Positions 63,576-63,934 of a stretch of 64,000 nt of DNA are shown one piece after another. The notes below the pieces were generated by a model that made no database searches, was not told where the DNA came from, and saw nothing but the letters and a program-made list of their open reading frames with translations. Source of the DNA: Escherichia coli (GTDB taxonomy: Bacteria; Pseudomonadota; Gammaproteobacteria; Enterobacterales; Enterobacteriaceae); NCBI RefSeq assembly GCF_036507355.1, contig NZ_AP027877.1. One strand, 5' to 3'. The translations under genes and the position numbers were made by a program. Numbering within the stretch: the stretch's first letter is position 1; every line of letters begins with the position of its first letter.

Positions 63576-63630
63576 AGAAAAGCCCCGAGTGATATTTTAC
63601 TATCAACCCGAGGCCCCCTATATGCTGAAC
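63576..63630 (-). ncRNA. sokC: SokC antisense RNA (type I antitoxin of hokC), position inferred
   Basis: Placed by the conserved hok/sok architecture (antisense across the mok start region); boundaries not verified from sequence. Confidence 0.45.
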
Positions 63631-63831
63631 ACATGTAGAGTGCCTCTTACTGACCGTAAGGTCAAGGAGAAGAGAGCAATGAAGCAGCATAAGGCGATGA
63701 TTGTCGCCCTGATCGTCATCTGTATCACCGCCGTAGTGGCGGCGCTGGTAACGAGAAAAGACCTCTGTGAGGTTCACATCCGAACTGGCCAGACGGAGGT
63801 TGCTGTTTTCACGGCTTACGAATCCGAGTAA
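63622..63831 (+). CDS. mokC: MokC, overlapping regulatory reading frame of hokC
   Basis: 69-aa frame MLNTCRVPLTDRKVKEKRAMKQHKAM... co-terminal with hokC. Confidence 0.7.
   Translation: MLNTCRVPLTDRKVKEKRAMKQHKAMIVALIVICITAVVAALVTRKDLCEVHIRTGQTEVAVFTAYESE
63679..63831 (+). CDS. hokC: HokC (Gef) small membrane toxin, type I toxin-antitoxin
   Basis: 50-aa product MKQHKAMIVALIVICITAVVAALVTRKDLCEVHIRTGQTEVAVFTAYESE. Confidence 0.88.
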   Translation: MKQHKAMIVALIVICITAVVAALVTRKDLCEVHIRTGQTEVAVFTAYESE

Positions 63832-63934
63832 GAGCAACGGCGGGGAGTGATCCCCGCCACTTTTCAGGTGCTCGCATATCTTCAACGCACCCTAATTTTA
63901 CCCAAGCCTGCCCACGGGCAGGCTTTTGGGGAGG

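Follow-up and report, generated by a model that had tools for sequence, protein, structure and literature searches.

The DNA analysed here is a stretch of 64,000 nucleotides of Escherichia coli (contig NZ_AP027877.1 of assembly GCF_036507355.1), referred to below as the window. Its last 3 kb contain nhaR (minus strand, 60962-61885), nhaA (minus strand, 61927-63093), an AT-rich spacer of 435 bp and, on the plus strand, the hokC locus; they end with the 3' part of dnaJ, which is read from the minus strand. The hokC locus and its border with dnaJ comprise the following features.

63517-63522, plus strand: -10 hexamer TATAAT (perfect) of the hokC promoter; in the alignment it corresponds to TATGAT, the -10 of hok in an R1-like locus
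63529-63927, plus strand: predicted full-length hokC mRNA of about 365-400 nt, collinear with R1 hok mRNA; its 3' end would be either the terminator or, as in R1, a point a few nt past fbi
63529-63540, plus strand: tac (translational activator element), GGGUGCUUGAGG, at the mRNA 5' end; predicted to pair with fbi (full-length) or ucb (trimmed)
63576-63630, minus strand (63630→63576): predicted SokC antisense RNA, 55 nt, with a 12-nt free 5' tail, a 17-bp terminator hairpin and UUUUCU; covers the mokC Shine-Dalgarno (SD) sequence and AUG
63582-63587, plus strand: ucb (upstream complementary box or anti-SD), GCCCCG; predicted to pair with the mokC SD region 63609-63614 (full-length) or with tac (trimmed)
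63610-63613, plus strand: mokC SD GAGG, invariant in 13 homologues; predicted to be hidden by ucb in the full-length RNA and to pair with dcb once the RNA is truncated
63622-63831, plus strand: mokC frame, 69 aa, in the same frame as hokC, overlapping it and sharing its stop codon
63637-63665, minus strand: putative SokC promoter, TTGACC (63665-63660), 17 nt, CACTCT (63642-63637); the start would be 63630
63642-63646, plus strand: dcb (downstream complementary box), GCCUC, within the invariant block GCCTCTT; its predicted partner in the truncated fold is 63610-63614, the region of the mokC SD
63679-63831, plus strand: hokC toxin ORF, 50 aa and stop, with the SD AAGGAG at 63664-63669
63817-63820, plus strand: TACG, made up of the Tyr47 codon TAC and the next G; a putative site of the A-to-I editing by TadA that recodes Tyr to Cys in hokC, hokD and hokE
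63839-63858, plus strand: 3' GC hairpin GGCGGGGA-GUGA-UCCCCGCC (DNA form GGCGGGGA-GTGA-TCCCCGCC), an empty IS186 target GGGG-N6-CCCC
63880-63892, plus strand: fbi (fold-back inhibitory element), CUUCAACGCACCC, forming 12 bp with one bulge to tac
63904-63927, both strands: putative bidirectional terminator hairpin, core gcctgcccacgggcaggc at 63906-63923, with UUUU on the hokC strand and an A-tract on the dnaJ side
63935-64000, minus strand: dnaJ 3' end (…FFDGVKKFFDDLTR*), stop codon 63935-63937, following the annotation of a 100%-identical record; the gene continues beyond the window

An earlier note on this DNA had delimited the locus at 63576-63934. The genes and the hairpin are located inside this span, but its start is set too late: SokC has its 3' end at position 63576, and the hokC promoter and the first c. 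47 nt of the mRNA, including tac and the 5' hairpin, are found upstream of it (63517-63575).

Both hokC and the overlapping mokC frame are complete, as had been stated. The hokC ORF codes for a small membrane toxin of the Hok/Gef family, and mokC, which has its own SD upstream, ends at the hokC stop. The MokC/HokC protein matches Pfam family PF01848 (HOK_GEF) with an E value of 4.6e-24 and 84 bits (cut-off 22). HokC is identical to the K-12 protein WP_000809168 and shares 98% identity with its counterpart in E. albertii. No nucleotide difference was found in the hokC ORF (153 nt) among the window, K-12 and a B2-type strain, nor in the mokC frame between the window and K-12. The TACG motif, which is typical of the TadA-edited hok mRNAs (hokB/C/D/E), is kept in 12 of the 13 aligned homologues. 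Transcription of hokC and TadA editing of its mRNA at the Tyr codon of this motif have been reported (PMC5630033).

The region upstream of the locus differs between strains. In many of them (B2-type and others; L002, L005 and L007), homology to the window stops c. 70-120 bp upstream of the hokC promoter (c. 63412-63456), and a sulfatase/OmpK-like gene pair is present in place of nhaA. These breaks indicate that the upstream flank of hokC is the junction of a variable island. A 1.31-Mb sequence listed in PLSDB as 'plasmid unnamed1' (CP099174.1, L002) includes dnaK and dnaJ together with a hokC locus that matches the window at 100% identity across 416 bp, and is probably a piece of chromosome misfiled as a plasmid. 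Further away, between the rpsT side and nhaR (56169-60924), four features were found; K-12 has kept only a fimbrial fragment and an IS1 there.

56169-57590: espX1, coding for a pentapeptide-repeat type III effector
58031-59098: fimbrial usher, C-terminal half only
59326-59829: IS1 transposase
59965-60924: 319-aa protein with no Pfam match

Three structured RNAs elsewhere in the window scored above the Rfam gathering thresholds.

1869-1968, plus strand: TPP riboswitch, 5' of a thiB-like ORF
17700-17779, plus strand: naRNA4 (CssrE)
46935-46987, minus strand: ES003 sRNA

The -10 hexamer of the hokC promoter is not accompanied by a good -35 at a spacing of 16-18 nt. Due to this poor -35, the promoter was not called in a consensus promoter and terminator scan of 63100-64000 at strict thresholds. 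The SokC promoter and the terminator hairpin (63904-63927) were likewise not called, the latter falling below the threshold of 5 T in 8. The lone terminator-like match of the scan (63773-63761, minus strand) was rejected, as it falls within the hokC ORF and is at chance level. Transcription of hokC would start at about 63529, and the Rfam model of the leader begins at this position. This model, RF01794, matches over its full length (63529-63681, plus strand) with 122.4 bits versus a gathering score of 59, indicating a conserved hok leader. The family is named 'sok antitoxin', yet the match is on the sense strand and reaches the hokC AUG, and hence it models the hok mRNA leader. Automatic annotation with this family would therefore give 'sok' an incorrect strand and extent, and the match was rejected as evidence for SokC itself. 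Weak Rfam matches to rpsL_pseudo (18 bits) and sR1 (14 bits) were dismissed, being far below the gathering scores.

At its 3' side, the locus was said to run straight into a dnaJ terminator hairpin. The hairpin at 63906-63923 is present and is followed by TTTT, but this U-run is on the hokC strand. The structure is best read as a bidirectional terminator, which would also end the hokC transcript. It is conceivable, but less probable, that the hairpin serves only dnaJ and that the hokC transcript ends a few nt after fbi, as in R1. In an R1-like locus, fbi ends at mRNA nt 391 and the next hairpin at nt 429, and full-length R1 hok mRNA is 398 nt long, which fits this fbi end. In addition, a hokC transcript of c. 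330 nt is quoted for strain ECOR24 in PMC3562002. What argues for the bidirectional terminator is the U-run on the hokC strand, as opposed to the tail UUGGGUAAAAUU on the dnaJ strand, and that neither folding nor the terminator scan revealed another terminator-like structure between fbi and the hairpin.

The folding of the mRNA, which had been proposed as a check, gave the switch of tac, fbi, ucb and dcb that the R1 model predicts. In the full-length form (63529-63899 or 63529-63928), tac (63529-63540) pairs with fbi (63880-63892), a long-range 5'-3' helix of 12 bp in the minimum free energy (MFE) structure, and ucb pairs with the mokC SD region (63609-63614). The MFE was calculated to be -165.5 kcal/mol (z = -6.8 versus shuffles). 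When the sequence was cut just past the GC hairpin (63529-63864, 336 nt), tac was found to pair with ucb and the mokC SD with dcb. The closed state is thus the MFE structure of the full-length and the open state that of the truncated sequence, both being MFE predictions and not structure probing. The two predicted folds match the closed and open states of R1 hok mRNA (PMC9841398). By analogy with the equivalent R1 3' stem-loop, the role of which has been described (PMC9841398), the GC hairpin at 63839-63858 is presumed to be the 3' end and the protector of a truncated mRNA of c. 330-336 nt. This predicted length agrees with the c. 330-nt transcript of ECOR24.

Comparison of 13 homologues provided additional support for the pairings. 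The tac-fbi helix is 94.8% paired, with a double change from U-A to C-G, the ucb-SD helix is 98.5% paired, with G-C replaced by A-U in six sequences, and the 3' GC hairpin is 95% paired. Across the alignment, the predicted structure of the window is 87.6% paired, compared to 35-43% in controls with slid partners; as the window, from which this structure comes, is itself among the aligned sequences, the structure is favoured over these controls. Double changes were observed in 33 pairs, a number reached in none of 500 shuffles. In every homologue of the GGGUGCUUGAGGC type, a complementary fbi is found at the equivalent position, 349-389 nt downstream. Matched changes in tac and fbi were seen in Photorhabdus (GGGCGC/GCGCCC) and R1 (GGCGC/GCGCC) relative to GGGUGC/GCACCC, the covariation set being restricted to sequences with a 5' end recognisable under the pattern used, which excludes several relatives from Photorhabdus, Citrobacter and Kluyvera.

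The position of SokC was transferred from the K-12 annotation of sokC (16952-17006 in U00096), which we take to hold here as well; the sequence of the region is identical in both. The RNA has a predicted folding energy of -21.2 kcal/mol (z = -4.5). Its putative promoter is identical in K-12, the B2-type strain and the hokC locus of E. albertii, and aligns with the R1 sok promoter TTGCGC-17-TATCCT, compared to which its -10 (CACTCT) is weaker, with A2 and T6 only. A 1-nt deletion relative to the plasmid paralogues and R1 (alignment columns c. 150-156; 63637-63642) is common to the chromosomal hokC clade of E. coli, E. albertii and Pseudocitrobacter. It turns the Sok -10 from TAATCT/TATCCT into CACTCT and, judging from this change of sequence, might lower the output of SokC.

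Strain K-12 MG1655 has a 1339-bp IS186 (annotated as IS4-like IS421-family transposase) between hokC and dnaJ, in agreement with the earlier note. The insertion site corresponds to 63853/63854 of the window, 22 nt past the hokC stop and inside the GC hairpin, and GGAGTGATCC is duplicated there. The hairpin fits GGGG-N6-CCCC, the known target type of IS186. In the window, the junction is continuous, GGAGTGATCC occurs once and no IS186 terminal repeat was detected along the 64 kb with up to three mismatches allowed. The K-12 comparison hence bears out the claim that hokC and dnaJ are not separated by IS186 here. After removal of the IS from the K-12 sequence, seven of 461 positions differ from the window (63497, 63543, 63601, 63616, 63864, 63895 and 63905). 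None of them falls into hokC/mokC, the SD sequences, tac, ucb, dcb, fbi or the SokC promoter. Point mutations that would speak against an intact locus were also sought; none was found, the SokC promoter, the SD and start of mokC and the mok/hok overlap being identical to those of K-12 and the B2-type strain.

As a result of the insertion, the hokC ORF of K-12 is separated from fbi and the terminator hairpin, which stays beside dnaJ. According to PMC3562002, IS186 in K-12 gef disrupts fbi and normal processing, with hokC of ECOR24 as the IS-free counterpart. The premise that IS186 silences K-12 hokC is contested, as a CRISPRi screen reports a strongly deleterious effect of sokC knock-down in K-12 even though the IS lies 22 bp downstream (bioRxiv 10.1101/2020.03.04.975888). 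A hotspot of IS186 in the lon promoter is cited in the literature, and hok loci are described as hotspots of IS insertion (bioRxiv 10.1101/527788).

With a 191-bp query, the uninterrupted hokC-dnaJ junction was detected in 3814 of 5426 complete E. coli genomes (c. 70%), a value that describes this collection, which is biased to laboratory and clinical clones, and is not a population estimate. In most of the remaining genomes, the match breaks at 63843/63854; c. 30% of the complete genomes are interrupted at the 3' GC hairpin, and the IS186 junction in K-12 orientation was found in 841 genomes. In others, IS186 occupies this site in the opposite orientation and is flanked by the same duplication. 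The copies of K-12 and AF5 are 99.9% identical as reverse complements. The occurrence of both orientations at an identical site (L001, 3355-4693; L007, 2271-3609) indicates that IS186 inserted here independently at least twice.

A scan of species-representative genomes yielded at least 24 HokC-like loci. Both the type strain of E. albertii and the GTDB representative of E. coli have an IS-free hokC directly beside dnaJ. Since E. albertii also lacks the IS, the IS-free allele is, on the sequences compared, the ancestral as well as the majority state. It is highly improbable that the absence of IS186 is secondary, i.e. that a copy was once present and was then precisely excised or exchanged for an IS-free allele by recombination. 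E. coli lineages often recombine with one another, and the window has K-12-like flanks with nhaA directly upstream, both of which would be compatible with such a loss. However, the target GGAGTGATCC is present as a single copy without a scar, no IS186 end remains in the window, and the IS-free allele is found in the majority of genomes and in E. albertii. Based on the single-copy target and the IS-free outgroups, secondary loss was rejected.

Insertions were also observed at other positions and in related loci. In AR_0149 (L008, c. 3009-4460; c. 63608 of the window), an IS150 is located between the SokC terminator/ucb region and the mokC SD, in addition to an IS186 downstream of hokC. On the IncY plasmid pCX15 (L004, position 657), a hokC/hokD-like locus with c. 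75% identity has IS186 in the equivalent 3' GC hairpin, indicating that this hairpin is a family-wide target of IS186.

Among known systems, the hokC (gef)/mokC/sokC (sof) locus of K-12 is found at the same position between nhaA and dnaJ and has identical HokC and MokC proteins and an identical SokC region and promoter. It differs from the window at three positions of the 5' leader and by its 1339-bp IS186 in the 3' GC hairpin. IS-free hokC of ECOR24 (Pedersen & Gerdes 1999, as cited in PMC3562002 and bioRxiv 10.1101/2025.08.07.668861) represents an allele of this type, in which hokC retains its fbi and lacks an IS, and the transcript of c. 330 nt is reported for it. The hok/mok/sok system of plasmid R1 (parB) has its elements arranged in the order found here (tac, 5' hairpin, ucb, mok SD, sokT, dcb, hok, 3' hairpin, fbi), and its RNA is predicted to switch between the same two states, with co-varying tac and fbi. 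In contrast to R1, hokC is chromosomal and not plasmid-borne, its toxin is only distantly similar (50 aa versus 52 aa in R1), it has a shorter 5' hairpin and a weaker Sok -10, and the -10 of hokC is a perfect TATAAT. While R1 mediates post-segregational killing, IS-free hokC reportedly does not (bioRxiv 10.1101/2025.08.07.668861). Plasmid-borne hokC/hokD-like loci (IncHI1B, IncY and plasmids of c. 95 kb) are c. 75% identical in nucleotide sequence along the entire mRNA, fbi included, and start with the same GGGUGCUUGAGGC 5' end. In contrast to the window, their leader hairpin contains an insertion of c. 20 nt and their Sok -10 (TAATCT) is better, and the locus of pCX15 has its own IS186.

Based on these results, the locus very probably represents the ancestral uninterrupted allele of the hokC/mokC/sokC type I toxin-antitoxin system, an ordinary member of the hok/sok family for which we infer an R1-like mechanism by homology. 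A weak constitutive promoter (-10 at 63517-63522) would give rise to a stable full-length mRNA starting at about 63529. In this RNA, tac would pair with fbi and ucb would mask the mokC SD, allowing neither translation nor binding of SokC. Slow 3' trimming to the GC hairpin (63839-63858) would remove fbi and lead to pairing of tac with ucb and of the SD with dcb. The trimmed RNA would then be open both to SokC and to translation of mokC, to which translation of hokC would be coupled. SokC (63630→63576), if expressed as in R1, would bind the mokC start region of the trimmed RNA, the RNA would be destroyed and HokC would not be made. HokC itself would act as a 50-aa membrane toxin, the Tyr47 codon of which may be edited to Cys by TadA. 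In K-12, IS186 has inserted into the GC hairpin and taken fbi and the terminator off the transcript, which is not the case in the window. The points that stand against this explanation are the weak -10 of SokC (CACTCT) with the 1-nt deletion of the hokC clade, the poor -35 of hokC, the consensus scan, which called neither promoter, and the only functional test reported for an IS-free hokC, which saw neither post-segregational killing nor activation by rifampicin.

The suggestion of the earlier note that the toxin-antitoxin system may be functional holds with regard to its intact structure. Its function, including the physiological output, would follow from homology to R1 and is partly contradicted by the one published test, on ECOR24. 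According to Pedersen & Gerdes 1999, as cited in bioRxiv 10.1101/2025.08.07.668861, a survey of Hok, IS-free hokC of ECOR24 showed no post-segregational killing, no plasmid stabilisation and no activation by rifampicin. Without killing and a rifampicin response in ECOR24, an intact locus cannot be equated with a functional one in the classical sense. These results would fit a locus that is intact in sequence yet inert, a silent relic conserved by overlapping constraints (RNA structure, dnaJ terminator and low mutation input), in which case the lack of IS186 would be of no consequence to the cell. The original authors reportedly suggested that chromosomal hok loci are inactive; in addition, an IS in the hokC locus is tolerated by 30% of the genomes and the promoters of both hokC and SokC look weak. 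Nevertheless, we consider an inert relic to be unlikely. The 153-nt hokC ORF has no substitutions between phylogroups with flanks several percent apart, HokC is almost unchanged in E. albertii and compensatory changes keep the RNA switch across genera. Moreover, HokC is toxic and kills upon over-expression (bioRxiv 10.1101/2025.08.07.668861), the knock-down of sokC is deleterious even in K-12 and the hokC mRNA is transcribed and edited.

An uninterrupted hokC could also be a conditionally active toxin-antitoxin system, responding to nutrient limitation or to incoming plasmids or phages that bear hok. Recurrent insertion of IS186 would then reflect repeated selection to disarm or re-tune the locus and not only a target preference. 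The observations that can be cited for such selection are the c. 30% interrupted loci, both orientations of IS186 at an identical site, the hit in the IncY homologue and IS150 in some leaders, but we regard this reading of the pattern as rather speculative, and conditional activity itself as quite improbable. If it were true, strains like that of the window would carry an 'armed' allele.

The IS-free hokC is not new, as it was reported and characterised in 1999, and it is the norm in E. coli. It is K-12 that is atypical at this locus, a point to be considered in annotation. Chromosomal hok function is no more testable with the window than with thousands of other genomes, and a strain with an intact allele is the right background for testing it.
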